From: Nitrospiria bacterium | Lineage (GTDB): Bacteria > Nitrospirota > Nitrospiria > JACQCE01 | NCBI GenBank assembly: GCA_041484905.1 | Contig: JBGPIL010000001.1 | Location: 1 to 33,544, forward strand | Direction of reading: 5' to 3' | DNA length: 33,544 nt | Part shown: piece after piece, positions 5,430-29,595 of the stretch | Layout of the letters: the number at the start of each line of letters is the position of its first letter | Position numbering within the stretch: the first letter of the stretch is position 1 | Translations under genes and position numbers: made by a program | The notes under the pieces: model-generated | The model's database searches: none | Told to the model about the DNA's origin: nothing | What the model saw: the letters and a program-made list of their open reading frames with translations, nothing else

Positions 5430-6428
5430 TCATGACAGTGAAAAGATGGCGATTGTCCCCCGGCCGGATCGGTCGACCGAGGTAAAGGCCAGGCTGGCGC
5501 CGTCCGGGCTCCAGGCGAGATAGAAATAGCCGATCCCCTCGATGAAGTCATGGTTGATGTCATACTTCGGCGCCCACCGGCCGGAGAGCTGGTGCGTGAC
5601 CCTGACCGGATTGGTGCCGTCCGTGTTCATCACCCAGATGTCCCGCGACCCGTTGCGCTCCGAGACAAAGGCGATCTTGCTGCCGTCCGGGCTCAAGGCC
5701 GGAATCATATCCCGCTCCGGCGTGTCAGTCAGCCGCGTGTAAGGGCCTTTTGGCGTCGCATCGGATGGAATCCGGTACAAATCGCCGTGGCCGGATCGGG
5801 TGGAGACGAAGGTGATGTTCGACCCGTCTACGCTCCACGCCGGTCCCCAGTCGCCGTTGCCCCCGGTGGTGAGCTTGCGCTGTTCGCTGCCGTCGGCGTT
5901 CATCGTATAGACGCTGTATTCCAGGTCCCGGTACGAGACGAACGCGATCTTGCGTCCATCCCGGCTCCACGCCGGCGCCAAATCGGCAAGCGGATGAGTC
6001 GTCAGTTGATGCAGAACGGGTTCGGCGGCATTGGCCGCCGGCGCCTCCATCGCCCAGATATCCCAATTGCCGTTTCGCGTGGAGGCGAAGGCGATCTGAT
6101 TTCCATCAGGACTCCAGGCGGGGTAGCGGTCGTCGCCCTTCCCGGTGGTGAGCTGGCGCAGGCCGGTGCCGTCCCGATTGATCATCCAGAGTTTGTACGA
6201 GCCGGATTCGTTAGACACAAACGCCAAGCGGGCGCCGTCAGGACTCCAGGTCGGCGTCAAATGATCCGACGCATCATGGGTCAGGTAGGTGACGTGGCGG
6301 CCCTGGCCGGCGAAGTCAAAATGCGTCCCAAGGTCGTCGATCGCCTGACACCCTGCCAGCAGTCCGAAGGCGAGTGCGGCGCTGACCGCGAGAGAGGATC
6401 GATGGAAAGAGTGGCGGTTCCTGTTCAT
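5430..6428 (-). CDS. PD40/TolB-like beta-propeller lipoprotein (tandem paralogue 2)
   Basis: Start MNRNRHSFHRSSLAVSAALAFGLLAGC (lipobox). Its ATG overlaps the upstream TGA (ATGA at 6425-6428). Blades: WSPDGARLAFVSNESGSYKLW, WSPDGNQIAFASTRNGNWDIW, WSRDGRKIAFVS, WSVDGSNITFVSTRSGHGDLY, LSPDGSKIAFVSERNGSRDIW, WSPDGASLAFTS. Confidence 0.85.
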   Translation of the reverse strand: MNRNRHSFHRSSLAVSAALAFGLLAGCQAIDDLGTHFDFAGQGRHVTYLTHDASDHLTPTWSPDGARLAFVSNESGSYKLWMINRDGTGLRQLTTGKGDDRYPAWSPDGNQIAFASTRNGNWDIWAMEAPAANAAEPVLHQLTTHPLADLAPAWSRDGRKIAFVSYRDLEYSVYTMNADGSEQRKLTTGGNGDWGPAWSVDGSNITFVSTRSGHGDLYRIPSDATPKGPYTRLTDTPERDMIPALSPDGSKIAFVSERNGSRDIWVMNTDGTNPVRVTHQLSGRWAPKYDINHDFIEGIGYFYLAWSPDGASLAFTSVDRSGRGTIAIFSLS

Positions 6429-9430: not shown

Positions 9431-11188
9431 ATGAAAGACCGATCTTGGCCTGTTCGATTGTTGATAGGGCTGCTGCCTTTCTTACTCGGCGCCGGGCAGC
9501 CGGCGTTGCACTTCGCCGACGTGACGCGCCAGGCGGGATTGCGTTTTCAACACCAGAACGGGGCGGCCGGCCAAAAATATTTTCCGGAGACGTTCGGATC
9601 GGGCGTCTGCGTGATCGACTACAACATGGATGGCTGGCCCGATCTGTTTTTCGTCAACGGTCGAGCCTGGACCGCTCAGGAACGGCAGGCACAGGCGCGA
9701 AGCGCGCAATCCGGAAAGCCGGCCACCGGCCCGCCTTCATTCTCCGCCCTCTATCGGAACAATCATGACGGCTCATTCACCGATGTGACCCGCGAAGCCG
9801 GTTTGGCCGTCGAGCTGTATGGCACGGGCTGCGGGGTGGGGGATTATGACAACGACGGCGCCCCCGATCTGGTGGTGACGGCCTACGGCCAGACCCACCT
9901 GTTCCGAAATACCGGTCACGGACAGTTTCGGGACGTCACGGCCGAAACCGGCTTAACCGACACCGGCTGGGGAGCGTGCGCCATCTGGTTCGACTACGAC
10001 GGCGACGGCGATCTCGATCTCTTTGTCTGCCACTACGTCCAGTGGACGCCGCAGACCGATCTGGTCTGCGGATTAAGCGGCCAGGTCAAGCTCTTCTGTG
10101 GCCCCGATCCCTATCGCGGAGAGTCCAATCGCCTCTACCGCAACGATGTTGTTGACGGCAAGCGGCTGTTCACCGACGTGACCCAAGCAGCCGGGTTGTT
10201 GAATCCGAAGGGCAAGACGCTGGGCGCATCATTGCTCGATTACAACAATGACGGCCGGCTCGATCTGGCCCTCTCGAACGATCAGGTGCCGAATTTCCTC
10301 TACCGCAATAACGGCGACGGAACATTGACGGATGAGAGTGTCATCCTGGGCACCTCGGTCGGCCGGTTCGGCATGGCCAAGGCGGGAATGGGCATCGACG
10401 CAGCCGACCTGCTCAATAACGGCTCGATCGGCATCCTCGTCGGCAACTTCGCCAAGGAGGGACTCACGCTCCATCAGCTTGAACGGCGCGCCCGGCCCTC
10501 CGAGCCCTCCTCAAACAAGGAGCTGTTGGCGCCGCTGGCTCCGGCGACGGTGTTCAAAGACCAGGCGCCCCGACTGGGACTGACCGCGCCGAGCCTGCCG
10601 TTCCTCACCTTCGGCGTGGCGTTCTTTGACGCCGATCTGGACGGCTGGCTCGATATCGTGGCGGCGAACGGTCACATTGATGCCGAGTTGGTGAACTTCC
10701 TGGAGCGCAATGTGACCTATCGGGAGCGGCCGCTGTTCTTTTTGGCCAGGCCGGGCCAGGAGCTTCGGTATGAAGAAGCCGGGGTGTCAGCCGGCGTGTC
10801 GGCGGCCATCGTCGGCCGGGGTGTGGTCTATCTCGACTACGACCATGACGGTGATCTCGACCTGGTGTTCACCGAAAACGGCGGCCCAGCGCATCTCTAT
10901 CGGAACGAAGGCACTCCGAAAAATCACTGGCTTCGTCTCGATCTGCATGGGACCAAGAGCAACCGGGATGCCATCGGCGCCGTGGTCAAAGTCACCGCGA
11001 ACGGGATGACGCAAACGCGCATGGTCAAAACCGGCTCCAGCTATCTCTCCCAAAGTGAATTGCCGCTGACGTTCGGACTGGGGCCGGCTGAGACAGCGGA
11101 GCGGGTTGAGATCCACTGGCCAAGTGGTCAGACTCAGGTCCTGGAAAAAATCGCCGCGAATCAGCAATTGGTGGTGACGGAGCCATGA
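9431..11188 (+). CDS. CRTAC1-family FG-GAP/VCBS repeat protein with C-terminal ASPIC/UnbV domain
   Basis: The ATG at 9431 (preceded by AGAGGGG) gives the signal peptide MKDRSWPVRLLIGLLPFLLGAG. The tracked start at 9104 would overlap the divergent gene. Loops: DYNMDGWPDLFF, DYDNDGAPDLVV, DYDGDGDLDLFV, DYNNDGRLDLAL, DADLDGWLDIVA, DYDHDGDLDLVF. ASPIC block: NRDAIGAVVKV, GSSYLSQSELPLTFGLG, IHWPSGQTQ. Confidence 0.85.
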   Translation: MKDRSWPVRLLIGLLPFLLGAGQPALHFADVTRQAGLRFQHQNGAAGQKYFPETFGSGVCVIDYNMDGWPDLFFVNGRAWTAQERQAQARSAQSGKPATGPPSFSALYRNNHDGSFTDVTREAGLAVELYGTGCGVGDYDNDGAPDLVVTAYGQTHLFRNTGHGQFRDVTAETGLTDTGWGACAIWFDYDGDGDLDLFVCHYVQWTPQTDLVCGLSGQVKLFCGPDPYRGESNRLYRNDVVDGKRLFTDVTQAAGLLNPKGKTLGASLLDYNNDGRLDLALSNDQVPNFLYRNNGDGTLTDESVILGTSVGRFGMAKAGMGIDAADLLNNGSIGILVGNFAKEGLTLHQLERRARPSEPSSNKELLAPLAPATVFKDQAPRLGLTAPSLPFLTFGVAFFDADLDGWLDIVAANGHIDAELVNFLERNVTYRERPLFFLARPGQELRYEEAGVSAGVSAAIVGRGVVYLDYDHDGDLDLVFTENGGPAHLYRNEGTPKNHWLRLDLHGTKSNRDAIGAVVKVTANGMTQTRMVKTGSSYLSQSELPLTFGLGPAETAERVEIHWPSGQTQVLEKIAANQQLVVTEP

Positions 11189-12030
11189 GAAAAATAGGGT
11201 CAATGGGCAAGGATCAGGGGTGTAGGGTGAAAGAAAAAACAAAAGTCTTTGGCAGAAATCTATCCTTGATGTTTTTTGTTAGTCTCTTGCCGGCCTGTTC
11301 ATTTTTAACTCTTGCCCCTGGACCCTTGCCCCATGACCCTCCCCCCGGAATGGTTTCTATTCCGGGGGGGCCGTTTCTCATGGGCAGCACGCCGAACGAC
11401 GGCGTAGTGGGATTTGAAATCGGCGTCGATGAACTGCCGCAGCATCGCGTCGAGCTGCCCGGCTATTTCATCGACCGGTACGAGGTGACGGTCGGTGACT
11501 ATCGCAAGTTTGTCGAGCCGACCGGCCGCCTGCCCCCCAGGATTTGGGATGACCGGCGATACGCCGCTCCCTCGGAGGACCATCCCGTGATCGATGTGCG
11601 ATGGGTGGACGCCGACGCCTATTGCCGCTGGGCGGGCAAACGATTGCCGACGGAGGCGGAATGGGAAAAAGCCGCTCGCGGGACAGATGGGCGCCGTTGG
11701 CCCTGGGGGAATCAATGGCAGCCGGGGGCCGCCAATATCCAGGGCGATCGCCGTAATTGGACGGCGCCGGTTGGGAGCTATCCGTTGGACAAAAGCCCCT
11801 ATGGAGTCTTCGACATGGCCGGTAACGCCATGGAATGGACCAGCTCGTGGTATCAAGCCTACCCCGGCAGCACGCTCCGCCGTCCCGACTTCGGCCAGTT
11901 ATACAAAGTGCTCAAAGGCGGCTCGTGGATGTCGCCGGTCAACCCCTTTACCCATGCCGCCAATCGCTATGCGATCATGCCGAAGTGGGATCATCCGCAC
12001 CTCGGCTTTCGCTGTGCGAAAGACGAGTAG
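11185..12030 (+). CDS. FGE-sulfatase-fold lipoprotein; paralogue 3 of 3
   Basis: Its ATG overlaps the TGA of 9431..11188 (ATGA). Lipobox SLLPAC; alternative starts at 11203 and 11269. Motifs: SIPGGPFLMGS, DELPQHRVELPGYFIDRYEVTVGDY, VRWVDADAYCRWAGKRLPTEAEWEKAARG, GNAMEWTSSWY, KGGSW, GFRCAKDE. Confidence 0.85.
   Translation: MRKIGSMGKDQGCRVKEKTKVFGRNLSLMFFVSLLPACSFLTLAPGPLPHDPPPGMVSIPGGPFLMGSTPNDGVVGFEIGVDELPQHRVELPGYFIDRYEVTVGDYRKFVEPTGRLPPRIWDDRRYAAPSEDHPVIDVRWVDADAYCRWAGKRLPTEAEWEKAARGTDGRRWPWGNQWQPGAANIQGDRRNWTAPVGSYPLDKSPYGVFDMAGNAMEWTSSWYQAYPGSTLRRPDFGQLYKVLKGGSWMSPVNPFTHAANRYAIMPKWDHPHLGFRCAKDE
11311..11345. repeat. Intragenic degenerate heptanucleotide array (5 units)
   Basis: CTTGCCC CTGGACC CTTGCCC CATGACC CTCCCCC, directly after the lipobox Cys codon. 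It is translated as LAPGPLPHDPPP. Confidence 0.55.
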
Positions 12031-12118
12031 TTCACGGTTCATGGTTCACAGTTCATGGCAAAGAGTACAAAGAGTCCTGGCCAGGTTGGCTATGAACCAT
12101 GAACGATGAACCCTGAAC
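12030..12118 (+). repeat. Heptamer-built inverted-repeat element, copy A
   Basis: Left arm GTTCACG GTTCATG GTTCACA GTTCATG (12030-12057). The 33-nt spacer is GCAAAGAGTACAAAGAGTCCTGGCCAGGTTGGC. Right arm TATGAAC CATGAAC GATGAAC CCTGAAC (12091-12118). The arms are about 23/28 complementary. The first G is the last base of the TAG stop of 11185..12030. Confidence 0.8.
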
Positions 12119-12138
12119 GGGTGACAAACGGGTGACAG

Positions 12139-12402
12139 ATGGCGTTTGATTTTGAAAGGTTGGAGGTCTATCAGGAGGCGGTTCAGTTTGCTGATGAAAT
12201 CTACCGGCTGACCAGGAAGCTTCCTCAGGAGGAGCTATTTGGCTTAACGAGCCAGCTTCGCAGAGCAAGTGTCTCTGTCGCATTGAATATGGCAGAGGGA
12301 AGCGGGCGGCTGAAGAAGGAGTTTCGGCAGTTTCTGCGCATGGCGAGGGGATCGATCTATGAATTGATTGCGATTCTGCGGATCTCGCGGGATCAGCAAT
12401 AA
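12139..12402 (+). CDS. Four-helix-bundle protein (23S rRNA intervening-sequence protein / DGR Avd family), interrupted by an in-frame TAA
   Basis: MAFDFERLEVYQEAVQFADEIYRLTRKLPQEELFGLTSQLRRASVSVALNMAEGSGR...FLRMARGSIYEL matches the family pattern (F..L.VYQ.A, QLRRA..S...N.AEG, A.GS..E). The frame stays open after the TAA at 12400-12402 and encodes LAREDYDRCYARGEQLAKRISALIKAISS up to the TAG at 12490-12492. That gives a family-typical length of about 117 aa. Confidence 0.75.
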   Translation: MAFDFERLEVYQEAVQFADEIYRLTRKLPQEELFGLTSQLRRASVSVALNMAEGSGRLKKEFRQFLRMARGSIYELIAILRISRDQQ

Positions 12403-12484
12403 CTCGCGCGAGAGGACTATGACCGATGCTACGCCCGAGGAGAACAGTTGGCCAAACGAATCAGCGCCTTGATCAAAGCGATTA

Positions 12485-12559
12485 GTTCATAGTTGATAGC
12501 TCATGGTTCATGGTCTGCATACGCGCTTGGCCATGAACCGTGAACGGTGCACCGTGAAC
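12485..12559 (+). repeat. Heptamer-built inverted-repeat element, copy B
   Basis: Left arm GTTCATA GTTGATA GCTCATG GTTCATG (12485-12512). Spacer GTCTGCATACGCGCTTGGC. Right arm CATGAAC CGTGAAC GGTGCAC CGTGAAC (12532-12559). Confidence 0.75.
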
Positions 12560-12577
12560 CAGATTGGCTGGTTTTGC

Positions 12578-12605
12578 CGTGAACCATGAACTGTGAACCA
12601 TGAAC
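12578..12605 (+). repeat. Half-element (right-arm type only)
   Basis: CGTGAAC CATGAAC TGTGAAC CATGAAC, preceded by GGTTTTGC. There is no matching left arm. Confidence 0.65.
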
Positions 12606-12671
12606 CATACCGGCGTTGAACCAATTGAATAATAAGAGATAATTAAATGGAAGACGCCGGCAAGAACCGCC

Positions 12672-12699
12672 TTGACAAAATTGTTCGTCCTGCTACTAT
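12672..12699 (+). promoter_or_regulatory. Sigma70-type promoter for the leader of the giant gene
   Basis: TTGACA (12672-12677), a 16-nt spacer, then TACTAT (12694-12699), inside an AT-rich island. It is the best -35/-10 pair I found in the window, and the nearest downstream gene is on the + strand. Confidence 0.55.
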
Positions 12700-12730
12700 T
12701 AACAGCAAATCGCGGGGGTTTGTGGTTTGC

Positions 12731-12758
12731 CATGAACGATGAACCATGAACTGTGAAC
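12731..12758 (+). repeat. Half-element (right-arm type only) within the leader
   Basis: CATGAAC GATGAAC CATGAAC TGTGAAC, preceded by GGTTTGT GGTTTGC. It is a near-direct repeat of 12570-12605. Confidence 0.65.
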
Positions 12759-12766
12759 CAGCCGCG

Positions 12767-12866
12767 CCACCGACAAGAGCAATCCCGGATCGAAAGGCCG
12801 GGTCGCAGAGCGAGTGGCCTAACTCCCAGGCTGTAGAGGGATAGGGTAGCACCGCCGCCGAAGTGG
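12767..12866 (+). promoter_or_regulatory. Candidate GEMM-I (c-di-GMP / cGAMP class I) riboswitch aptamer
   Basis: Hand fold:
- P1: CCACCG (12767-72) pairs with CG[AA]GUGG (12859-66).
- J1/2: ACAAGAGCAAU.
- P2: 12784-12802, with a GAAA tetraloop at 12792-95.
- J2/3: UCGCAGA.
- P3: 12810-12855, about 13 bp, containing GGCCUAAC.
- 3' end: GCCGAA (12857-62).
The order and spacing of these blocks match the GEMM-I consensus as I remember it (GGCAAAcc, cGAAAg, GACGCAAAGC, GGCCUAA, GCCGAA). Confidence 0.5.
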
Positions 12867-12900
12867 ATGATATGAAGCAGAGGGACGAAGGCCAACCTGT

Positions 12901-12935
12901 ACGAACCTCCCCCGAGGAGTCGTGCGGGTTTTTTT
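12901..12935 (+). terminator. Possible intrinsic terminator / riboswitch expression platform
   Basis: ACGA-AC-CUCC cccga GGAG-UCGU is an 8-bp stem with a 2-nt bulge. Alternatively CCCG...CGGG pairs. Either is followed by GCGGG and T7 (12929-12935). The stem is weak, and the tract lies upstream of the probable start of the giant gene. Confidence 0.35.
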
Positions 12936-13066
12936 GTGCCCTGCGTGAGCACGCCCAGCGAATCTGTCGTCACATGAGCGCTCAATCGACTTCATCGAAT
13001 CATCGTCGCCTTCTTTTCTCCTCTACTGGTCAGCATCTACCCTTGGCTTATCACCCTGCACGCCTC

Positions 13067-16000
13067 ATGAAAAAACGGGACGCGTCCCTCCTTGTTCGAA
13101 GCCATGTTGTTGTGTTGGGTCTGGCCTTCCTCAGCTTCTTCATCGCCTTGCCCGATAAGGCGCAGGCGGCGACAAAAGACTGGAGCTGCACCGCCGCTAC
13201 GACAGCTTGGGCGACAGGATCGAACTGGGTGGGAGGTGTGGCGCCGACCAATGACCTGACGACAGACATTGCTCGGTTTAATTGTACGAGTTATACAAGT
13301 CAGCCTAATGCCGGCACGACCAGCATCGCTGGAATTGTTATTGGCGATGGCGCCACGGCCACTGCCGCGTTGACGATCAGCGGGACGGCTCTGAGCATCG
13401 GAGCTTCAGGTGTCGTCAAAAATGCCGCTTCAGGCACCGCCACGATCAGTACGGCCACCACACTAGGCGCCGCGTTGCCCTTTACCAACAACTCCGCCAC
13501 TTTACTAACTGTCGGTGCTGGGGCGATCACCAACGGCGCCAATCTTTTAACGGTGAACGGCTCCGGCAACGTCACGATTACGGGCGTAATCGGCAACGGC
13601 GCCGGAGGGGTGACCATGAGCGGCACGGGCACACTGACCCTCCAGGGCGCCAACACCTACTCAGGGGTGACGACGCTGAACGCGGGGACCTTGAAGGCCA
13701 CGACGAGCGCCAGCGCCCTGGGCGCGGGAACGTTGACGCTGGCCGGCGGAACGTTGCAACTGGCCAATGCCGCAACGCTGTCGTTCGGCCGCAACACCAC
13801 CGTGACGGCCAACAGCGCGATTATCTCGGATAAGCTGGCCGCCGGCGCGGGGGTGACCTTCACGCTGGGCACCCTGAGCATCGGGGCGAACACGTTAACG
13901 ATCAGTGCGGGGACCAATGCCACCAGCGGGACGGCGGGGATCACCTTCGGGGCCGTCACGCTGACGGGCGCGGCGACGATCAATAGTGCGACCGCTGCAA
14001 GCGGTTCGTCGGCCGTCAGCCTCGTGACGCTATCGGGCGGGGTGACCAACGGAGGCTTTCTCCTCACGCTTGGCGGTGCCGGTAATACCACGTCCAGCCT
14101 GGTGGCGATTTCCGGCGCGGGGGGCGTGACCAAGAACGACGCAGGCACCTTGACATACTCAATTGCCGAGACCTACACGGGCGCAACTACGATCAATGGT
14201 GGGACCGTGCTCGCAAATGCGACGAACGCGATCGGCAGCAGCAGCGCGGTGACGGTCGCCTCGGGAGCGACGTTGGATCTGCGGTTTGCCGACACGATCG
14301 GATCGTTGGCCGGTGCCGGAACCGTGACGAAGGGGGCGGTGGGGGCCATCACGTTGACGGTCGGCGGGGACAATACGTCAACGACCTTCTCAGGAGTGAT
14401 TCAAAACGGCAGCGGCACTCTCGCCGTGACCAAGACGGGCACGGGCAACCAGACCTTCTCGGGGGCGAATACCTATTCGGGCACCACGACCGTCAGTGCG
14501 GGCACCCTGACTGCCGCAAATACCCAGGCATTGGGGACCGGGACGCTGACACTGTCCGGCGGGACGTTGGACCTGGCGACCGACACGAGCATCAACGCCT
14601 ACAACACCACGGTCTCCCTCACCAGCACGATCATCTCGGATCGGGCCACGGCGGGCGCGGCCGTGACCCACACGCTGGGGACCCTGACCATAAGCGCCAA
14701 CCAGACACTCAATCTCACACTGGGTGGCAATGTGACCAGCGGCACGGCGGGGCTGACGTTTGGGACCACCACGCTGTCGAATGTTGGAGTGGTCTTTAAC
14801 ACGGCGGCGAGCACCAACCTGACGCTGGGGGCCTTGACCGGCAACTTCAGCTTCTCGAAGCAGAACAGCGGCCAATTGACGCTGAACACGGCCAGCGCTC
14901 GCACGAGCGGCGCCGTGACACTCTCCGGCGGCACGACGGTGCTCGGTGATCCCAGCGCCTTGGGCACCACCGGTGTGACCCTGACGCTCTCCGGCGGGAC
15001 GCTGGATCTGGCGACCGACAGCAGTGTCAACGCCTACAACACCACGCTCTCCGCCGGCACCACCAACGGAATCGTCTCGGATCGGGCCACGGCGGGCGCG
15101 GCCATCACCCATACCCTGGGAACCCTGAGCACCAACAACGCCCAGCTCAATGTGACCGTGGGCGGCAATGTGACGAGCGGCACGGCGGGGCTGACGTTTG
15201 GCACGACCACACTTGTAGCCGCGACCCCGATTTTCGACACGGCGGCCAACACCAATCTGACCCTGGGGGCGGTGGGCGGTAATGTTGCCTTCACCAAACA
15301 GAACAGCGGGCAACTGACCTTGAACACGGCAAGCACGCGCACTTTGGCTGCCGGTACGACGACCCTGACGGCGGGTACGTTGAAGCTGGGGACGGGCAAC
15401 GCGCTGAACACCGTCGCCTCGTCGCTGAACCTCAACGGCGGGACGCTGGTGTTGGCCGTGGATGCAAATACGACGTTCAATGGGACCAACGTGGTGGCGG
15501 GTGGGGGAACGGTGCAGGTGAATCGCGCAACGGCGGGGGCTGGCGTCACCGACACGCTGGGGACACTGAGCATCGGCAACGTTCAGCTCAATGTGACCGT
15601 GGGTGGCAACGTCACCAGCGGGACGGCGGGGCTGACGTTTGGGGCGACCACACTCTCGGCCGCGACCCCGATTTTCGACACCGCCTCGAGCACGAACCTG
15701 ACGCTGGGGGCCTTGAGCGGCAATTTCGCCTTCACCAAGCAGAACAGTGGTCAATTGACCCTGAACACGGCCAGTGCCCGGACGCTCGGCGCCGTGACGC
15801 TGGCCGGCGGCACGACGGTGCTCGGTGCGAGCACCGCCTTGGGCAGCGCCGCCGTCCCCCTGACGCTCTCAGGCGGGACGCTGGATCTGGCCATTAATGG
15901 CAGCGTCAGCTCCCACAACACCACGGTGACAGCCGACACCACGATTATTTCGGATCGGGCCACGGCGGGCGCGGGAGTGACCCATGCCTTGGGGGGCCTG

Positions 16001-19000
16001 ACCATCGGGGCGCAGACGTTAACGATCAGCGCCGGGGCGAATGTGACGAGCGGCACGGCGGGGGTCAGCTTTGGTGCGAGCCTTGGGACGACCCTGACGG
16101 GGGCGGCGACCTTCATTAGCGCGAGCAGCTCTCCGGCCGTCAGCCTGCTGACCGTCAGAGGGGGCAACGCAGGCGCAAACACGATGACATTTGATGGAGC
16201 TGGGGATTCAACGGTGTGGATAACGGGGTTTTCAGGGACTGGCGGTCTCGTCAAGAACGGATCGGGCACGTTGACCCTCAGCATCAACAATAGCTACAGC
16301 GGCACCACCACGATCAATGCGGGGACTGTGACCGAGAATATCGCCGGCGGGGCGCTGGCCGGCGCGGTGACCATCGCCGGCGGCACCCTGGACATGGCGG
16401 CGATCTCCGATACCGTGGGCGCCGTGACGCTGACCAGCGGCAGCATCACCGGAACGACCGGCGTCCTCACCGGCAGCTCCTACACGGTGGAGAGCGGCAC
16501 GATCAGCGCCATTCTGGGAGGAGGTGGCATCACGCTGACCAAGAATACAGCGGGGACGGTGACCCTCTCAGGGGCCAACACTTATACCGGCACGACGACG
16601 GTGAATGCGGGCACCCTGGTGGCCACGACGAGCGCCAGCGCCCTGGGGACGGGATCATTGACGCTGGCCGGCGGGACGCTGCAACTGGTCGATGACGCGG
16701 GGCTGGCGTTCAATCGCAACACGACCGTAACGACCACCAGCACGATCATCTCGGATCGGGCCACGCCGGGCGCGGGAGTGACCCACACGTTGGGGACACT
16801 GAGCATTGGAAACTTTCAACTCAATGTGACCGCGGGCGGCAATGTGACGAGCGGCACGGCGGGGCTGACGTTTGGTAATACCACCCTCTCGGCCGCGACC
16901 CCAATTTTCGACACGGCCTCGAGCACGAACCTGACGCTGGGGGCGTTAAGCGGCAACTTCGCCTTTACCAAACAGAACAGCGGCCAATTGACGCTGAACA
17001 CGGCCAGTGGTCGATCAAGCGGCACGGTGACGCTGGCCGGCGGTACCACCGTGCTCGGCAATGCGAGCGCTCTGGGCACCACCGGCGTGCCCCTGACGCT
17101 TTCCGGCGGGACGTTGGATTGGGCGATCGACACGAGCGGCAACGCCTACAACACGACGGTGACGGCTGATAGCGCGATCGTGTCGGATCGGGCCACGACG
17201 GGCGCGGGAGTGACCCATACATTAGGAACGCTGAGCATCGGAGCGCAGTTAACGATCAGCGCCGGGGCGACGAATGTGACCAGCGGCACGGCGGGGATCA
17301 CCTTCGGCGCGACGACCCTGACGGGGCCGGCGACGATCAACAGCGCCAGCAGCTCGCCAGCGAGCCTGCTGACGTTGGGGGCGGTGACCAATGGGGCGAA
17401 TCTCTTCACCTTTACGGGTGCGGGCGACAGCACGGTGGCCGGCGTCCTTGGCAATGGAAGCGGCGGTGTGACCAAGAACGGTACGGGCACGCTGACCCTC
17501 TCTGCGGCCAATACCTACACGGGCGTCACCACGATCAATAACGGTGTCGTGGCGGCGGGCAACGCGGCCGCCCTGGGGGCCACGGGAAGCGGAACGGTTG
17601 TGAACGGCGGGACGCTGGATCTGAACGGCCAGGCCGTTGGTGCGGAGCCGGTCACGCTCAACGGGACGGGCTTTGCCAGCGGCGGCGCCGTGATCAATGG
17701 CAGCGGGACGGCCGCGAGCCTGAGCGGCGCCGTGACGTTGGGCAGCGCCAGCAGTCTCGGCGGCACGGGCGACATGACGCTCAGCGGCGGGATCACCGGC
17801 GGCGCCTTCACCCTCACCAAGACCGGCAGCGGCACGACGACGCTGTCGGGCACTGTCGGCGTCGGCGCCCTGGTGCTCAATGGCGGGACGCTGGCCGGCG
17901 GGTCGAGCGCGTTGACCGTGGCCGGCAACGTCAGCGGCTCGGGCGGGATGAGCTTCACCACGGGTACCTTAACGATCGGCGGGGACAATACGGCATCGGG
18001 CCCCTTTGCCGCCGGGACGGGGACGGTCATCTATAGCAACGCCGGCGCCCACACCGTCCGGGGGATGACCTATCATCATCTGACCGTCACCGGCGGGGGG
18101 ACTTTTTCGCTCAATGTGATCACGACCGTCGGAGGGGATTTCACCATCGGCGCCTCCACCATCTTCCAGACGGCCAGTGTCCCGATGAGCGTCGGCGGTA
18201 ACTGGGCGAACAACGGCACCTTTACCGCCGGCACGGGGATGGTGACGCTCAACGGAACGGCGTTGCAAACCCTCTCCGGCGCGCTGACGGGGACATCGGC
18301 CTTCTATGATCTGACGATCACCAACACCTCCGGAGCCGATCCCAGCGTTTGCGTCGGCCCCGGACCCGATCCCACATTCACGCCGGGCGTCACCTTCTCT
18401 GTGGCGGCCAAGACGACCAATACCTTTGCCATTTCCGGCGGGAACGTCCGGGTCCAATATCTGGCCGGCGCCACCTACGCCTTCACAAACGTGAACTGGT
18501 CGGTGCCGTCGACATCGAACAAGATCACGTTCAGAAGCTCCACTCTGGGCACGCCATGGTTGTTGAATGTGCCGGGCCTGCAATTGGCCGCCTTCTACGT
18601 TGACGTGAAGGATTCGAACAATGTCATTCCGCCAAGCGCCAACCCGATCGGCGTCCTCAACGGCACCGATTGCGGGAATAACACGAACTGGACTTTTGGC
18701 ACGTCGACCAACTGGACGGCGACCAATCCCTCCGTCCTCGGCTTTGACCTCACCAGCGATACGAATCCGGCCGTCCCCTCCTCCATGGAGATCACCGGCA
18801 GCGTCCTCCAGCTCAAGGATCAATCCCCTTCATCCCCGGCCTTTTCCACCTCCTATGTCGAGGCGGTCACCGTGCCCTTCGGCGCGGGGCTGATGATCGT
18901 CCGCTGGGACAAGGTGGTGATCGAACTGCTTGGCGCCGACTTCGGCGTGGTCAAGGTCGGTTATGAATTTTCCACCAACGGCGGCGGTTCCTGGACCTGT

Positions 19001-22000
19001 GTCGATTGCGATCCGACGAACGCCGCCGCGCCGGAGCGCTTCCCGACGAACGCCACCATCAATCTCGGCGAAATCCTTCCGCTGGGCGGGACCCCCGGCA
19101 GCAATCTGATCAAATTCCATATCTATATGAAGTCGGACACCGGCTCGGCTCGGAGCCATACCGTCGGCAGTTTGTCCCTGTCGTTCAATCAGACGCTTGC
19201 GGTGACCAGCACGAACCCCTCCAGCCAGTTGCAAGGCGTCACCCAGGTGGTGCAGATCATCGGCCAAAACTTCCTGTCCGGCGCGATACCGACGATCGGC
19301 AATACCGGCTCCGGCGTCCTCGTGACTGGCGTGAGCTATTCGAGCCAGAACCGGCTGGACGCCACGGTGGCGGTCTCGTCGGTGGCTTCGGTGGGGGCGC
19401 GGGACGTGGTGGTGACCAATCCCGGCGGCTCGGCTGTCTGCTCCAACTGCTTCAGCGTCACGTTCAACCCCAATGCCCCGCCGGTGGTGACGGCGATCAC
19501 TCCAGACCACCGGACCCAGGGGGAGACCGCCCAGACCGTGACGATCGACGGAGGCAATTTTATCGATGGATCGTCTCTCTCGTTCAGCACCACGGCGATC
19601 ACCGTCGATTCGGTGACGATTAATCCGGCCTGCATCAGCGGGTCGCCCTGCACATCGTTCACCGCCGTGATTTCCATCGCCCAGAACGCCCTGCCCGGCA
19701 GTTACTATGTCACCGTCACGGCGCCCGGCGGCGCCTCCGGCACCAGCGACAGTCCACTCTTTACCATCGACGCCGGCCCGCAGGTGACCAGCGTCGTGCC
19801 CGCTTCCGGCACGCCCGGCACGACGATCCCGGCCGTCATCAACGGCGCCAATTTTGAAAGCGGGGCGACGGCCAGCTTCGGCGCCGGCGTCACGAACAAC
19901 TGTGCGTATACCTCCGCCGTCCTGCTGACCTGCACGACCGTGCAGATCGGCGCGGCGGCCCTGCCCGGCACGAGGGACGTCACCGTGACCAATCCGACCG
20001 GCGGGACGATCCGGGGCTCGGGGACCAAGACGGCGGGTTTTCTTGTCTCGACGACGCCGAACCCCGTCAGCGTCACGCCGCCGTTGCTGGGGCCGGGCGC
20101 GACCGGGCAGTCGCTGACGGTCAACAGCCCCACCGCGACCTTTGCCTCCGGCGCGACGGTGACCTTCGGCAAGCCCACCGTTGATCTGTTCAATTTGTGC
20201 AGTAATTTCACCTTCGCCAGCCCGGCATCAATCGGCTGCGTCCTGCCTCAAGAGTTGGCGGCGACCGGCAGCACGAAGGCGCTCTACCATTTTGATGCGG
20301 GCAGCGGGAGTACGGCGGCTGATTCCTCCGGCTCCGGCAATACCGGCACGATCAGCACGACCACCCGCCTCTACCTGCACGAGGCCTCCGACACCGCCGC
20401 CGGCCTGCCGGACGGAGAGCAATCGACCGACACGGCCAATGTCAACTGGACGGCGGCGAATACGATCCGCCAGATGACCGAGACGATCGGCTCGGCGCAG
20501 CAATCGCCCTCGGCCAATACGCTGGCCCAGACCGCCCAGCAGTTGCACTTTATCCGGATGTGGACAAGCCCGCCGTTGGCCGCCCAGACGATTCCGAATA
20601 CCACCACCTGGACATTGAACTTTGCCCGGTTGGAGAACAATGGTTCTGCAAATTTCCTGGCGCGAGTCCACCTCTATGTCTGGCGGCCCGGCACGGCAAC
20701 CAAGGTGGGGACGATCATCGCGCCGACCACGTGGGGGACGACAGGGTGCAACCCGGCCACAACCCCTGCCACATGCAGCGAGAATAGCTCGTCAAGCGCC
20801 GAGCAGTCGTATCACTGGACGGCGATCGCCGGCGGCAACGTGACCGTTCAAGAGGGCGATCGGCTGGTGCTGGAGTGGTGGGGCGATCTGACGCAAGGGT
20901 CGGCCACAACCTACAGCCTGAAGGGCTATTATGACGGCGCCGCCGTGACGACGGCCACGAACACAACGGTGACCAGCCAGGCCAGCTTCTTGGAAGCCTC
21001 CCAGCCCTTTGCGTTGAGCAGCGCCTGGACCGCGATGGGCAAATACTCCCCCGCGCTGACGTTTGACGGGAATAGTGATTACGTGAATGTGCCGGATTCC
21101 GCCACGCTGAGCCTGACGGGCAACTTCAGCCTGGAGGCCTGGATCAGGACCAATCTCAATACGGTCCAGCAGGGGATCATCGAAAAATTTGACGCGGCCG
21201 GAACCAACGGCTATGCCCTGCGGCTGACCGCAGCCGGGAAGCTCCAGGCTGTCACGTATGGCGCGGCGAGCAGCGCGACCGTGACCGGCGCCACCACGGT
21301 GACGAGCGGCGCCTGGCATCATGTGGCGGCGGTCTATAACGGAGCGACGATCAAGGTCTATCTGGATGGCGCGGAGGACGGGAGTGCGGCGGCGGCGGTC
21401 AATCCGACGAATGGGACGAATAGCCTGAGAATCGGCGCGGGCGGAGGAACGGCCGGGGGTTTCTACTTCAACGGCATCATTGATGAACTGGCCATCTTCA
21501 ACGCCGCCCTGCCCGCCACGGGCGCCGGAAGCGTGCAAGAGCATTATCTCGACGGCGTCAGGGCAATCCAACTCCTTGGTTCGGCCCCCTATACAACCGC
21601 GCCGCAGACGGCGACCAGCGCGGCGTTCGGGAGCGGCTATTCGATTCAAAGCTGGAACACGCTGCAGGTGACGAGCAGCGGGACCAATGACGGCCCGACG
21701 ACGATCAAGATCGCCTACAGCAAGGATGGGGGAGCCAGCTTTGTCAGCAGCAGCGGCGGGGCGGCCTTCTCCGATGGGGGGACGACAGTGACGGGCGGGG
21801 TTCAGGTGATTTCGTTGTGCAACACGGCGACCTGCGTGAACGCCTCTGATGCCACCCAAAACCGGATCAAGGTTCAGGTGACAGAGGCGTCGGGGACCGG
21901 CGCCAACCGTCCCTACGATGTAAACCAGATGAAGCTCTCCTGGACGCCGACGACCGGTATCACGATCGTCTCGCCCTTTACGACCAATGGCGCCGGCACG

Positions 22001-25000
22001 GGCGTCTCCTTCGCGGTGAATGTCGCCAACAACCTGGCGCAGGCCGTGCCGACCACGTTTGATGTGACCGTCACCAATCCCGACACCGCCGCCGGCACCT
22101 GCGTCGACTGCTTTATGGTCGCGGAGTCGCTGAGTTTCTCGCCGTCCAGCCTGGGCCAGGGGGCGCAGAACAGGAGCGTGACGATCACCGGCAGCGGCTT
22201 CCAGCCCGGCCTCGCGGTGGACTTCGGCGACGCCAACATCACCAACAACTGCGTCTACAGCTCCTCGACCCAGATCACCTGCTCGGCCGTCAACGTCGGC
22301 GGGGCCGCCACGACAGGCGTGAAGACGGTCAACGTCACCAGCGGCGGCAACGTGATCGGCACGGGCCTCTTTACGGTCAACCCTCATCCGGCGACGCTGA
22401 GTCTCACGCCAGCCAGCGCGCTGGCCAATACCAGCAATCTTCTCGTCACGTTGAACGGCGCCAATTTTCAGAGCGGGGCGACGGTGACCTTCAGCGATTC
22501 GCTGATCACCCAGCATGGATCGTCCAATTACCAGACGATTCCGACCACCTTTGTCAGCAGCAGCCAACTGACGGCGAGCATCGATATTGGAGCGGCCACA
22601 ACCGGCTATCGCGCCGTGGTGGTGACGAATACCGCCGGCGACGGCGGCGTCGGCCAGGGGGCCTACTTCTATGTTGGCGCCCTCTCGACGACCGGCGGCA
22701 TGGTGGCCTATGGGGTGAGCGGGTCGGCCGATCCGAAATTCCGGCTGCTGCAATCGGACGGCAACTGGACCTCGGAGATGGGCATCGGGAGTTATTCCGG
22801 TGAGCCGCGCTGGACGGTGCTGCGCTCCAACCCGCTCTCTTTGGAAAAAGCGTTGGCCATCGTCGATACCAATCGTGCCCTCACGCTGCTGATGTGGGGC
22901 GGCAGCGGCTGGAGCGCGCCGGTGACGGCGACGGCCTCCAGCGGGCCGACCATCTACGCCGCTCGCAGCGTTGACCTGGCCTACGAGTCCGTGTCGGGTC
23001 GTGCGTTGGCCGTCTACGGCGTGACCGGCTCGGCGCTGCCTCGTTACCGGATCTGGGATGGAACGGCGTGGAGCGCGGAGGCGAGCGTGTCGTCGACGCT
23101 CAGCACCGGCGGCGCCCCTACCTGGGTGCGTCTCGTCTCCAGGCCGGGCACGAACGAGATCGTGCTCGTCTATCAGGATACCGGCGGCGGGATCGACGCG
23201 CTGGTCTGGAACGGGAGCGCGTTCGGGAACGAACAGGTGTTGACGACGACCGCGCCCAACAGCCCGAACGTGCAACTGGCCGACGCCGCCGCCGAGCAGT
23301 TGGCCTGCGGCGCCGCCTGCCGGGTTCTTGTCGTCTGGACCGGTCAGAGCCAGGCGACGCCGGTCTCCAGAGTCTGGAATGGAAGCTGGGGGGTGCAACA
23401 GGGCGTGCCGATCAGTTTTAGTTCGAGCCTCGGCTCGTTACGGAGTGTCAGGCTGGCGGCCGATCCGGCCAGCCAGGACATCGCGCTCGGCGTAACGGCC
23501 ACCGGCGGGCAACTCTCCCTCTCTTTCTGGCACAGCGCGGCCTGGGCCACCAGCGGGACGGCTGCGCCCCAGACGGTGGCGACGATCCTGCCCTCCTCGC
23601 TGGTCAGTCAAGGCCGTCCGTTCGATCTGACCTGGCAGGGCGCCTACTCCGGCATCCCCAGCCGCCTCTACGTTGTCTATGGCGATGTGGCGCCGATGGC
23701 CAGAAACTGGACAGGGGTTGCCGGCTGGTCGGCGGAAACCAACATGGTGTCCACGTCGGCGCTGCTTGGCCAGTATCACATGGACGAAACGAGCAATCCG
23801 CTCCTTGACAGCTCCGGGAATGGAAAAGATCTGACATTGACCACGACATCGATGACCGGGCAGCCGGGTATTGCCGGCCAGTCGGTGGTTTTCGGCAGCG
23901 GCGTCTCCGCGTCGGCATCGAATACCTCGGCCCTGGGCGTGAGCGGCGCCGTTCTCACGATGTCCGCGTGGGTTTATCCGAACAGCTTCCCCTCCCAGGC
24001 GATCATCCTGAACAAGGAAAGCTCATACGGGATGGGGATCAATGGCGGTCAGCTCCAGGCGGAGATCATGACCAATCCCGGCAGCGGGTGCAGTTGGAGC
24101 TGGGTGGGATCGACGGCCCTGACGCTCAACGTGTGGCAGCATGTCGCGGTGACGTATGATGGAAGCAATATCAAATTCTACGTCAACGGGCTTCTGACAC
24201 AAACCATCTCCAAAACCGGAACCATCTGCACCTCGGCCAACGCGTTCATGATCGGCGCCCGGCCGGCCGGCAGCAATTTCATCGGCCGGATCGATGAGGT
24301 CCGAATCCTCAATGCCGCCATGACGCCGCCAGCCATGCTCCAATTGGCGGCGGATCAGCGCGGCTCGCTCAACCTGTGGGTGGGCCAACTGAACGAGGCG
24401 CCAGCCCTGCAAACCATCCTGGGCAGCGGCGCCGCCTGGTCGGCCCCCGTTTCCATTGCCGCGCCGGCTTCGGGCGCGCAGTTCGTCTCGCCGAACACCG
24501 TCTATCCCGAATCATCGATGCTGGCGATGGCCGCGGGCACGGGCGCGCCGATCCTGGCCATCTTCGGCGCCTCGCCCGGATCGGCCTATCAGGGCCAAAC
24601 GCTCGACGTCACCGTTTCGGGCGCCAATTTCGTTTGCCCGGCCGGGCCGCTGTCCTGCGATATGACGTCCAATCCGACGACCGCGACCCAGATCACGTCG
24701 TTCGGCGATCCCAACATCACCATCGCTTCAGGGACGGTCCATACCGACACCCAGACCATCGTCGTCACCATCACGATCGGCGCACCCGCCTCGGTCGGGT
24801 TCGACAACATCACCGCCGTGAACCCCGACGCCACGTCGGCGACGGGCGCGAACCTGTTTCAGGTGCTCTCTATCCTCTCCGTCGTCTCAACGACGTGCGG
24901 GACCGTGACCGATTGCGTCCTGGGCCAGGGGGCGCAGAATCAGACGGTGACGATCAGCGGCAACGGCTTCCATGACTTCAGCGTCACGGACACCGAAGCG

Positions 25001-28000
25001 CGCTTCTGCACCTCATCGGTGCCGTGCGGTTCCCCCAGTTCACCGGATATCACGCTCGGCGCTCGAACGGTGCTCAGCGGATCGATCACCTACAATAGCT
25101 CGCTCTCGGTTGCGCCAACGGCCGCCGTCGGCAACTGGAACGTGACAATCATCAACACGTCCGCATCGGTCGGCACCGTGACCGGCGCGGCCATCTTCAC
25201 CATCGTCGCCGGCCCCACGGTGATGACAGCCATTCCCAGTCAGTTTGTGACCGGCACCTCCGGCACCGTCGTCCTGTTGGGGAGCAACTTTCAGACAGGG
25301 GCGACCGCCGACTTCGGCGCCGGCGTCACGGTTACCACGCCCTGCACCGTGGGCAGCTCGACGCAGATGAGTTGCGGTATCACCGTGAGCGCTGTGGCGG
25401 CCGCCGGCGCCCGGACAGTCACGATCATCAATCCGTCGCCGCCGACCGGGAACGCGGGGCAGGGAAGCACTGCGGGCCTCTTCACGCTGATCGGCCCGCC
25501 GGTCCTGACCGATACCGCCTGCGGCAGCGTGACGCCCACCCCCTGCGAAGTGGGGCAAGGCGCGACAAAGACCATCACAATCGATGGCAGCCAGTTCACG
25601 GCGACGCCGACCGTGACCTTTACCAAGACGGCATCAACCGGCTCGGTGACCGTCAACTCGGTGACGTTCGTCAGCTCGACCCAATTGTCGGTGAGCGTGA
25701 CGGTCAGCGCCAATGCGACGGTAGGCCTCTGGGATGCGACTGTCACCAGTCCGACCGGCGGGTCGGTCACCAGCAATACGGACCCCAAGCGACTGAGCGT
25801 GGCGGCCGGCCCGCCCACGGTGACGAGCACCAGTTGCCCGTCGGGCACTCCCTGCGCGAAGTCGAGCTCCGCGACGGTGACGATCAACGGGACGAATTTC
25901 AGCAATGGCGGCGGTGCCCCGACGGTCTGCTTCAGCGGCGTCGGCATGCCTGCCTGCCCGATCACGGCCACCTACGTGAACAGCACCCAGTTGACCGTCA
26001 CCATCGATGACACCGGTGCGGCGGTCGGCGCTCACGACGTCACCGTGACGCTGGCCAACGGCGGAACGGCGACCGGCGCCGGTCTCTTTGTGCTCAGCGG
26101 CACACCGACGATTACGTCGGTCGTGGCCGCGACCAGCGCCACCAACACCGCGGCGCAGGGCCTGGTCAACGAGCTGATCACGATCAACGGCGCCAATTTT
26201 GTGAGCGCGCCGACGGTCAGTTTCAGCGGCGACGGCATCACGCCCGTCAGCCCGATCACGGCCACGTTTGTCAACGCCACCCAGGTGACCGTGACCATCA
26301 CGATTGCCGCCACCGCCACGATCGGCGCCCGGACCGTGACCGTGACCAACCCCGACGGTTCGACCGTGACGGGCCCCTCGACGCTGACCATCACCGACCC
26401 CGGGAGCTACGCCGCCTTTTGCCCTGGCGGCAACGTGACGGTGACCGGTTCGACGACTTTGACCTTTGCCGCGCCGGGCCCGGCTTACGTCTGTAATAAT
26501 GTCACGGTGAATGGTGGCGGGGTCTTAACGATCGAAAATGGCGTGACCCTTGCTGTCAATACGCTCCTGACGGTTGGCGGGGCAACCGCCGGCACCGTCA
26601 GCATCGCCTTCCAGAGCGCCTCAACGACCGACTACGGCCGGATCAATGCGAATAATATTACGGTCAACTCCAACGGTGTGATCTCGGCCGATGGGCTGGG
26701 CTGCCCGGGCAGCCAGTCGGCGCAGGATGCGGGCGGCTGTGCGGATCTGCGGACGACCGGGCAGGATACCAACAGCCTCTACCGGGAAGGCGGGGACTCC
26801 GGAGGCACCGGAGGCGGCGGGGCGCATGGCGGCGCAGGCGGCGATGGGGATACAGCCAACTCGGGGGGTAAGCAGACGTATGGGAATGCCCTGGCGCCGG
26901 TCTTGCTCGGCAGCGGCGGGGGGTTATATAGCGGGACGGGCGGCAACGGGGGCGGGGCGATCCGCTTGGATCTGGGTGGGGGTCTGACGATCAATGGCCA
27001 GATCAGCGCGAAGGGCGCCAGGAGCTCGTTTCAGGGGGGCGGCAGCGGCGGGAGTATCTATATTACGATGGTGGGGACGTTGACGGGGACGGGGACGATC
27101 GCGGCCGACGGGGCGGGGCAAGGGGGGAGCGGCCGGGGCGGCGGGGGCGGCGGGGGGCGGGTGGCGCTCTATTACAGCAATTTTGGGACGATGCCGACGG
27201 TGACGGCGGCCGGCGGGGACAATCTGGGCGGGAATGCGCCGGGGGCGGCGGGGACGGTGACGCTGGTGATCGTTGATAATCAGCCCCCTGCGCCGATCTC
27301 GCCGTTGAAGCTGGTGCCCTTATCGGTGACCTCCGTATCGGCCAAGCTGCAATGGACGGCGACGGGGAATAACGGTGCGCTGGGCACGGCGACCGTCTAT
27401 GATCTGCGGTATGTCGTCGGCGCGGCGGCTGTCATGAGCGACACCTCGTATCAGACGGCGTTTCAAGTGGGTGGAGTGCCGGCGCCGGCCGTGTCGGGCA
27501 CGGTCCAGAGCTTCACGGTGACCGGGTTGACGCCGGCCACGAACTACTGTTTTGCGATCAAGGCCAGCGATGCGGCCGGCAATATCGGCGCGCTGGATGT
27601 GACGGGGACTTATTCAATAGATGGGACGGACGGCACGACGTCCACCGCCTGCTTCACGACTCAGGCGCCCGATACGACGCCGCCGGCGGCGGTGAGCGAC
27701 CTTGCGACGGCATTGGTGACAAGCGGGGGCTACACTTATACCGACCGGGTGAAGTTGACCTGGACGGCCGTGGGCGATGACAACAACAGCGGCACGGCCA
27801 CAAGTTATGAGCTGCGCTATTCGACTTCACCGATCAACGCCGGTAACTTTGCCTCAGCGGTCTTGGTCTCCGGCGTGCCCGCGCCGTCAATCGCCGGCAC
27901 CTACCCGGAACCTGCGCCCAGCGGCTTCATCATGACCGGCCTGCAATCGGGCCTGACCTATTACTTCGCGATCAAGGTGAAGGATGAGGTGCCCAATACC

Positions 28001-29533: not shown

Positions 29534-29568
29534 GGGGTTCGGTAGGCGGTAGGCAGTAGGCGGGGATT
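29534..29568. repeat. Tandem heptanucleotide array (about 5 units)
   Basis: GGGGTTC GGTAGGC GGTAGGC AGTAGGC GGGGATT, starting 10 nt after the TGA of the giant gene. Confidence 0.6.
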
Positions 29569-29595
29569 GAAGGAAATGAAAGGGGTGTTCCAGAG

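Follow-up and report, generated by a model that had tools for sequence, protein, structure and literature searches.

The stretch of DNA analysed here, hereafter the window, comprises 33,544 nt of contig JBGPIL010000001.1 from a Nitrospiria bacterium (assembly GCA_041484905.1), positions 1 to 33,544, read on the forward strand. It contains four copies, A, B, D and E, of a hairpin element built from tandem 7-nt GTTCAYR units that are followed, across a spacer, by units of the reverse complement. The reading we favour, with a probability of about 0.6, is that these GTTCAYR palindromes represent, in this window, a widespread but barely described class of S23p hairpin cassettes of the intervening sequence (IVS) type, which share the transcripts of host genes and are probably substrates of RNase III. 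The complete form of such a cassette is a gene of about 115 amino acids, encoding the four-helix-bundle protein S23p, between arms of a 7-nt unit and its reverse complement. Copy A, a decayed S23p gene, copy B and additional right arms are best read as one IVS-type cassette that follows an FGE-sulfatase gene right at its stop codon, and copies D and E as gene-less hairpins of the A/B lineage, having the same unit, related spacers and positions after the stops of two + strand genes. The GTTCAYR family is a previously undescribed member of this class. The observations behind this reading are the sense orientation of the elements in arrays of co-directional genes, their placement at gene boundaries, arm pairing over about 30 bp, turnover, and the sharing of units.

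Hairpin elements at stop codons

A preliminary description of the window, made from the sequence alone, had reported four copies of one architecture, and all four were located where it had placed them. Copy A, on the + strand like every arm and spacer of the family, is the 5' hairpin of the S23p cassette. Its left arm (12030-12057) is (GTTCAYR)4, with the units GTTCACG, GTTCATG, GTTCACA and GTTCATG; its 33-nt spacer (12058-12090) runs from GCAA to TTGGC; and its right arm (12091-12118) is (NNTGAAC)4, with the units TATGAAC, CATGAAC, GATGAAC and CCTGAAC. Copy B has a degenerate left arm (12485-12512; GTTCATA, GTTGATA, GCTCATG, GTTCATG), a 19-nt spacer running from GTCT to TTGGC (12513-12531) and a right arm of CATGAAC, CGTGAAC, GGTGCAC and CGTGAAC (12532-12559). 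Copy D consists of a left arm of six units with one 4-nt irregularity (30451-30496), a spacer (30497-30514; GCAAGTTCTTGACTTGGC) and a right arm of six units, also with one irregularity (30515-30564). The left arm of copy E (33329-33371) is followed by its spacer (33372-33389; GCAAATTTCTGTATTGGC) and by a right arm of (YRTGAAC)4 (33390-33417). The spacers thus begin and end as had been described, with GCAA (GTCT in copy B) and TTGGC; the rule that the variable dinucleotide of the unit is YR proved loose in the right arms, where GA and CC occur too. Two extra right arms are absent from the preliminary description: R1 (12578-12605; (YRTGAAC)4), directly preceded by TTTTGC, and R2 (12731-12758; (NRTGAAC)4), directly preceded by GTTTGC and lying between a predicted promoter and a cyclic di-GMP riboswitch.

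Three consecutive GTTCANN units (GTTCANNGTTCANNGTTCA, at most one mismatch) gave 16 matches in the window, against 0.00 in 100 dinucleotide-preserving shuffles of it. Folding bore out the long imperfect hairpins proposed earlier, with -33 to -55 kcal/mol and z = -4.0 to -7.8 against shuffles for copies A, B, D and E. Pairing is also available across the cassette: the right arm of A and the left arm of B are 81% complementary over 27 nt, and the left arm of A is 91-100% complementary to R1 and R2. The spacers of D and E, both of 18 nt as first described, are identical at 13 of 18 positions, and the ends GCAA and TTGGC are common to A, D and E only, copy B having TTGGC alone. This spacer asymmetry carries the earlier statement that all copies have the same orientation, and carries it by itself, because the elements are palindromic.

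The positions given earlier for A, D and E relative to stop codons were confirmed. The final G of TAG 12028-12030, the stop of the FGE-sulfatase gene, is the first base of copy A; copy D begins 3 nt past TAA 30445-30447; and copy E begins 4 nt past TAG 33322-33324. For copy B, TAG 12490-12492, the second stop of the four-helix open reading frame (ORF), spans units 1 and 2. The TAG before copy E is the ancestral stop of a TPR/multihaem-cytochrome gene, both orthologs of which end in HVHE followed by the stop. Relative to these orthologs the gene in the window has a 1-nt frameshift near 33235, either a real mutation or an assembly error, and because of it the listed ORF (30620-33394) runs into copy E. 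The best homologs of this gene are about 70% identical, and those that are named come from Acidobacteriota; copy D follows a 283-aa gene without a Pfam match.

No T-run directly follows A, B, D or E, in keeping with the earlier statement that the elements are without a U-tract, and a terminator scan of 11900-12900 was empty at the elements there; on both grounds the class of intrinsic terminators was rejected. Copies D and E contain no ORF. The elements matched no Rfam family, either at the gathering cutoff or at E <= 1, the single match in the window being a c-di-GMP-I riboswitch. Rfam also placed no rRNA in the window, where the elements sit between protein-coding genes. The 33.5 kb hold no transposase (RAYT, a Y1 transposase, included), integrase, attI site or reverse transcriptase, and target-site duplications, which the preliminary description had suggested looking for, were seen beside none of A, D and E. 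Its central proposal, a real family of heptamer-built hairpin elements beside stop codons, is supported.

The S23p gene of the A/B cassette

The four-helix ORF, which the preliminary description listed as no more than adjacent to copy B, is the cargo carried by the A/B element and provides the key to the identity of the class. Lying between A and B on the + strand (12139-12492), it belongs to the S23p family (PF05635, 23S_rRNA_IVP; TIGR02436, '23S rRNA IVS protein'), with E = 4e-33 for PF05635, 110 bits for TIGR02436 (cutoff 24) and E = 2e-17 for PDB entry 2GSC, a Xanthomonas pentamer that is the closest solved structure. The gene is decayed, an in-frame TAA (12400-12402) replacing a conserved Tyr codon, and is either a pseudogene or affected by a sequencing error. 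Upstream of copy A lies the FGE-sulfatase gene (11185-12030, + strand), for which an exact-protein lookup gave no hit. Two copies of an 11-nt direct repeat, AACGGGTGACA, fill 12116-12137, closing with GACAGATG at the start codon of S23p; they recall the Coxiella IVS, where GACAGAT heptamers precede the S23p ATG.

S23p genes within inverted heptamer arrays

The possibility that the family is confined to one genome did not hold up: the architecture was found in many phyla, with dozens of unit sequences. Two sets of loci were used. For the array-seeded set, one genome per species was scanned for four GTTCANN units, giving at least 120 loci; among the loci listed, to which the counts for this set apply, are members of Acidobacteriota, Planctomycetota, Verrucomicrobiota, Bacteroidota, Cyanobacteria, Desulfobacterota, NC10, Gemmatimonadota and others. 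The S23p-seeded set comprises 80 metagenomic loci (L123-L202) found with the S23p protein profile and thus chosen independently of repeats. In the array-seeded loci, 7 is by far the commonest tandem-repeat period, and period-7 arrays no more than 400 nt apart form 68 inverted pairs and 9 direct ones. Unrelated units abound (for example AAGTCTG/ACTTCAG and GCAGTGA/TCACTGC), so that 'heptamer-built palindrome' denotes a class rather than a single family.

Heptamer arrays flank all five S23p genes of the window and the array-seeded loci; four of these genes, with both flanks visible, have an upstream array and its reverse complement downstream, and the fifth runs off its locus. In the S23p-seeded set, a flanking inverted repeat with a score of at least 12 was found at 42 of 63 non-redundant S23p loci and, within these loci, at 4 of 159 positions that served as controls. 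In most of the metagenomic loci the gene is accompanied by tandem arrays no farther away than about 150 nt on the upstream and about 100 nt on the downstream side. The arrays are mostly of period 7 or 14 (8, 9, 15 or 16 in a few cassettes), and the units on the two sides are reverse-complementary, as in GGTTTTC/CCGAAAA, TAGCTCA/CTATGAG, CGTGATT/TCACGAA and TAGTTGG/CCAACTA. The 38 scored stems comprise 1161 aligned positions, 88% of them Watson-Crick. The upstream arms in L123-L202 are G-rich and C-poor, and the downstream arms the reverse.

The commonest unit in the metagenomic S23p sample, GCTCATA, is one base off GTTCATA, and many of the cassettes mix GCTCA and GTTCA units, like the left arm of copy B. 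Among cassettes with GCTCATA or GTTCATA units on one side and TATGAGC or TATGAAC on the other, a complete hairpin stands 5' of the gene in L134 and L147 and 3' of it in L142 and L186, and the junction TTTGC-YRTGARC of L186 is that of R1 and R2. From these layouts we infer that A, the S23p gene, B and the extra arms form one cassette. Cassettes with other units occur in finished sequences from isolates: S23p genes lie between (TCAGGAG)n and (CTCCTGA)n on plasmid pNPUN01 of Nostoc punctiforme and between (GGGTGTA)n and (CTACACC)n on a Calothrix plasmid. On plasmid AZO_p2 of Azospirillum lipoferum 4B (L205, 14401-14730), an S23p ORF with GAGGACG-type heptamer arms lies inside a 23S rRNA gene; it is a classical rRNA IVS, and nothing is annotated there in the record.

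Hairpins without a gene are more numerous than S23p genes and often carry the unit of the latter. Of 99 other period-7 arrays in S23p loci, 24 match the unit of the gene, against 4.4 expected; about 5 of these 24 lie beside additional S23p genes. Sharing of the unit tracks the identity of the S23p proteins, at 54% of pairs with at least 70% identity, 15% at 55-70% and 1-3% below 55%.

Placement and turnover

S23p genes are co-oriented with the upstream neighbour in a ratio of 55:7 and with the downstream neighbour in a ratio of 48:10. In examples read base by base, the left arm begins a few nt at most from the upstream stop codon or overlaps it, and the end of the right arm is just as close to the ribosome-binding site or ATG of the next gene. 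For gene-less inverted pairs, the median distance from a stop codon to the nearest arm is -1 nt (interquartile range -15 to +15), a figure to be read in the light of the fact that arrays with stops in all frames themselves end any ORF entering them. Fifty gene-less pairs fell into 33 tandem, 9 convergent and 8 divergent contexts, which differs only weakly from random placement.

Two orthologous loci, L121 and L122, encode proteins about 50-70% identical to those of the window. Empty sites in relatives had been suggested as something to look for, and the E site is empty in L121; in L122 it is occupied by a heptamer palindrome of a different unit. L122 also has neither the D heptamers nor an arm that starts at position 29540 of the window, though neighbouring coding and promoter-like sequences align. 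These differences in hairpin content indicate that the gain and loss of hairpins is rapid in evolutionary terms. At the D site, insertion boundaries could not be defined by alignment with the ortholog, the C-termini of the proteins differing. L122 further contains, at 6072-6380 and near a heptamer palindrome, the remnant of an IS200/Y1-transposase-like gene (ALYHVTSRGNARKPI..., ...GFHYSTVSRWV), bounded by a perfect 21-bp inverted repeat (GGGTCAGGTCTTGAATCTTGA / TCAAGATTCAAGACCTGACCC) and looking like a deletion derivative of the miniature inverted-repeat transposable element (MITE) type.

Relationship to known repeats

The closest known kind of element is the rRNA IVS with S23p, as in Coxiella burnetii, Leptospira and Azospirillum (L205). 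The two have in common the cargo family (PF05635/TIGR02436), terminal inverted repeats around the gene, a stem of tandem heptamers, a gene in the sense of the host transcript and an S23p ORF that is often decaying. The Coxiella 23S rRNA IVS has tandem GACAGAT heptamers in variable number at its 5' stem, and RNase III cuts its terminal-repeat stem at the first heptamer (PMC4990558). Heptamer stems in both the Azospirillum and the Coxiella IVS mean that the elements of the window share their construction with rRNA IVSs. The differences are equally clear. Whereas an rRNA IVS sits in helix 25 or 45 of 23S rRNA and has a single arm at either end of the gene, the elements of the window lie in intergenic DNA of mRNA genes, by stop codons, and their gene is flanked by two complete hairpins; D and E are without an ORF; and RNase III cleavage, which is known for the excision of rRNA IVSs only (PMC4990558), is putative here. 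With no rRNA location, the elements were filed as an IVS-like variant and not as an rRNA IVS.

The preliminary description had likened the elements to the short tandemly repeated repetitive (STRR) sequences of cyanobacteria, which was apt. Like the elements of the window, STRRs are tandem 7-nt repeats, intergenic and multicopy, and they differ in their unit sequences and in their cyanobacterial host. Other heptanucleotide repeats are likewise tandem, intergenic, genome-specific and variable in number. Of the GGGAATC repeats of Xanthomonas campestris (Xcc), which have been read as G-quadruplexes, 70 are in convergent inverted pairs (PMC4692102), Geobacter (G. metallireducens) has paired heptanucleotide sites on opposite strands (PMC2700814), and the TAACTGA repeats of Beggiatoaceae are mostly direct repeats upstream of start codons (PMC4679880). 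These families differ from that of the window in unit sequence, and have been interpreted as G-quadruplexes, regulator sites or translational signals. It is likely that the Xanthomonas GGGAATC repeats, the Geobacter sites and the cyanobacterial STRRs are the same phenomenon as the elements described here. No published link between heptamer repeats and S23p genes was found in the literature searched or in the passages checked in these sources.

Integron attC sites offer another likeness, in that a small promoterless ORF, co-oriented with the array around it, goes with an imperfect palindrome right after a stop codon, and the heptamer cores resemble GTTRRRY/RYYYAAC. An attC identity was nonetheless rejected: the order of the cores is reversed (GTTCAYR...YRTGAAC, with GTTCA first and TGAAC last), the units are in tandem, the C at position 4 of GTTCAYR breaks GTTRRRY, and the window has neither integrase nor attI.

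A proposed mechanism and the points against it

In the mechanism that we favour, cassettes would have no promoter of their own and would be transcribed with the upstream host gene. The arms would pair in the RNA to form a long imperfect duplex of about 30 bp, to be cleaved by RNase III or at least to block 3' exonucleases; this cleavage or block would set the 3' end of the upstream mRNA and free the S23p message. Unit number would drift by replication slippage, and the matching of arms would be kept up by template switching within the hairpin or by gene conversion. A gene-less hairpin may be what is left when the 5' and 3' hairpins of a cassette, which are nearly identical, recombine with each other, as in the origin of solo long terminal repeats; or it may come from separate copying. 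Among the roles suggested in the preliminary description, an RNase III site and a non-autonomous derivative of something mobile are still the best readings.

Several observations weigh against this account. In the sense strand, the stems have 38 A.C mismatches and 19 G.U wobbles (p = 0.016), the opposite of what selection for a hairpin in the sense RNA would leave; the comparison lends no support to such selection and does not discriminate between action at the RNA and at the DNA level. The right arms R1 and R2 stand alone, with no local partner, and R2 lies in a 5' leader. A profile search found no S23p remnants in the loops of gene-less hairpins, so that the derivation of these from full cassettes is presumptive. 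Of the gene-less pairs, 8 of 50 lie between divergent genes. The model does not account for the 7-nt period. The case for RNase III processing, which is probable here, is an analogy with the Coxiella rRNA IVS only, and the Coxiella S23p protein appears not to be made (PMC4990558).

Alternative explanations

The alternative that survives best, tentative as it is, treats the elements as selfish and S23p-dependent. The S23p pentamer would recognise the arrays, about one subunit per unit and as DNA or RNA, and promote their copying or maintenance, acting on its own cassette and, in trans, on gene-less hairpins, akin to RAYT and the repetitive extragenic palindromic (REP) sequences or their paired, hairpin-forming versions (REPINs). 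S23p is indeed a homopentameric toroid (2GSC; PMC4990558). Arrays flank nearly every S23p gene and most hairpins have no gene, paralogous S23p genes within one locus share a unit, hairpins come and go between orthologous loci, and a weak homology links S23p to Avd, which is an accessory protein of the reverse transcriptases of diversity-generating retroelements (DGRs). Unit and protein also co-diverge, but plain co-inheritance explains this equally well, and the proportion of pairs sharing a unit is just 15% already at 55-70% protein identity. To our knowledge, S23p has no known catalytic motif or nucleic-acid binding. The window, moreover, contains palindromes of two other units with no matching S23p gene, and its own S23p gene reads as a pseudogene.

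Somewhat less probable still is that the hairpins are terminators lacking a U-tract, or barriers to 3' exonucleases, kept under host selection at mRNA 3' ends in the manner of REP sequences and independent of RNase III and S23p. Their stability, their start right after stop codons and the tandem or convergent context of 42 of 50 gene-less pairs would suit such a role. The usual place of an S23p cassette, however, is between two genes of one transcript, its right arm abutting the start codon that follows, and termination there would silence the downstream gene. The elements also lack a U-tract, whereas an ordinary terminator-like hairpin with its T-run can be picked out by eye elsewhere in the window (about 2294-2323), there is no excess of G.U pairs in the sense strand, and the association with S23p would go unexplained.

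The elements might instead be neutral by-products, heptanucleotide microsatellites that arise by slippage and are mirrored by template switching, with the link to S23p due to shared permissive intergenic DNA; this we regard as unlikely. Among long simple repeats, those with a 7-nt unit show the strongest over-representation in bacteria, and slippage has been proposed as the cause, according to citations in two studies (PMC4679880; PMC4692102). Period 7 dominates in all sets of loci, and arrays occur within coding sequence of the window as well. Slippage of this kind sits poorly with 68 inverted pairs to 9 direct ones within 400 nt among the loci listed, with flanking repeats at 42 of 63 S23p loci against 4 of 159 controls, and with precise placement at stop and start codons; the spacer shared by D and E points to common descent rather than to independent slippage.

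A kinship with REP sequences, their mosaics (bacterial interspersed mosaic elements, BIMEs) or MITEs had been suggested in the preliminary description, and elements of the REP/REPIN or MITE type could in principle owe their mobility to RAYT or another transposase whose gene lies in a different part of the genome. Both kinds are short, palindromic, intergenic and multicopy hairpins, REP sequences too often lie at the 3' ends of genes, and in both a repeat-flanked protein gene is far rarer than the repeats. REP sequences, however, have a Y1 transposase and a fixed palindrome of 20-40 bp with a GTAG/CGTC head, whereas here the arms are variable-number tandem repeats (4-7 heptamers), the class has dozens of unrelated units and no fixed terminal sequence, and the gene linked to the hairpins encodes a non-enzymatic-looking four-helix bundle. 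GTAG does precede A and E, because of the TAG stop codon only, and D is preceded by GTAA. With no transposase in the window and no visible target-site duplication, such an origin is very improbable. A MITE identity was rejected on the lack of duplications beside A, D and E and on internal conservation that is limited, across A, D and E, to the GCAA and TTGGC spacer ends. The IS200-like remnant near a heptamer palindrome in L122 had offered a lead to RAYT; it was dropped, the remnant having its own, unrelated 21-bp inverted repeat.

Least probable of all is a degenerate DGR at A/B, with an FGE/C-type-lectin target, a hairpin after the variable region and then avd: a gene of the FGE-sulfatase fold, a hairpin and an Avd-like four-helix gene do directly adjoin, but this reading was rejected since the window has no reverse transcriptase, the repeats of the FGE genes are paralog similarity of about 64-72% only, with no template/variable repeat pair for the 3' end of 11185-12030, the S23p ORF scores 110 bits with TIGR02436 and 16.8 bits with the Avd model (cutoff 80), and D and E follow unrelated genes.

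Other features of the window

Further heptamer arrays of the window are absent from the preliminary description. A + strand palindrome with a different unit (1382-1510) has arms of GGGGTGA/GGCGTGA (1382-1406) and TTACGCC/TCACGCC (1478-1506); its left arm overlaps the TGA of FGE gene 1, and the sequence of its loop and right arm is part of FGE gene 2, for whose signal peptide it codes (in-frame ATG at 1420). Another palindrome on the + strand, with a third unit, spans 29540-29707. Its left arm, (CGGTAGG)3 at 29540-29563, lies 15 nt past the stop of the giant gene described below, and its CCTACTG-like right arm (29665-29707) is within the signal-peptide coding sequence of the next gene (ATG at 29596). 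The left arm is absent in the ortholog L122, where the partner coding sequence is conserved, and comparison of the two sequences suggests that the coding sequence was there first and that the arm formed opposite it. A solo heptamer array is found at 2241-2259. The terminator-like hairpin with a T-run at about 2294-2323 was judged by eye, with no terminator scan there. The coding sequence of the TPR/cytochrome gene contains CGCCTSA units followed by 14-mers (32059-32125) and (AGGGGCC)4 (32670-32699), which encode low-complexity linkers; the ortholog P0001 has a shorter version of the array at 32059-32125.

Downstream of B and R1 is the best candidate promoter, a strong sigma-70-like prediction (TTGACA-16-TACTAT; 12672-12699, + strand). 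The c-di-GMP-I riboswitch (12768-12862; 47.7 bits, gathering cutoff 35) is directly 5' of a giant gene (12863-29524) for a PATR/fn3 protein of 5553 amino acids. Past copy E, a perfect 9-bp inverted repeat (TTGACACCA-N8-TGGTGTCAA; 33446-33471) overlaps an ATG at 33471 and is operator-like in appearance.

Significance

The arrangement described here, an S23p gene within a heptamer-array hairpin inserted precisely between host genes or into rRNA, joins in one architecture the excess of 7-nt repeats, the heptamer palindromes of Xanthomonas and Geobacter, and an orphan IVS protein family that is multicopy and present in many phyla, three observations that so far lacked a shared explanation. Both the non-rRNA IVS-type S23p cassette and the general link between S23p and heptamer hairpins appear to be undescribed in the literature searched. 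The class is a possible source of some of the 7-base repeats of bacteria. It also matters for annotation: the hairpins overlap stops, starts and signal-peptide coding sequence, and in the window an extended ORF and mis-called gene starts are found at their positions. Binding of S23p to the repeats, cutting of operon transcripts by RNase III and movement of cassettes can now be tested.

A further suggestion, which we put forward tentatively, is that S23p is the trans-acting partner of a very large selfish family that crosses phyla, that its pentamer reads 7-nt units, and that this system explains much of the heptanucleotide-repeat excess. If so, the cassette would spread between gene boundaries and leave gene-less heptamer hairpins behind; STRRs, the Xanthomonas GGGAATC repeats and the Geobacter sites would be, in substantial part, the footprint of one gene family; and the classical intervening sequences of rRNA would be the rarest insertions of S23p cassettes.

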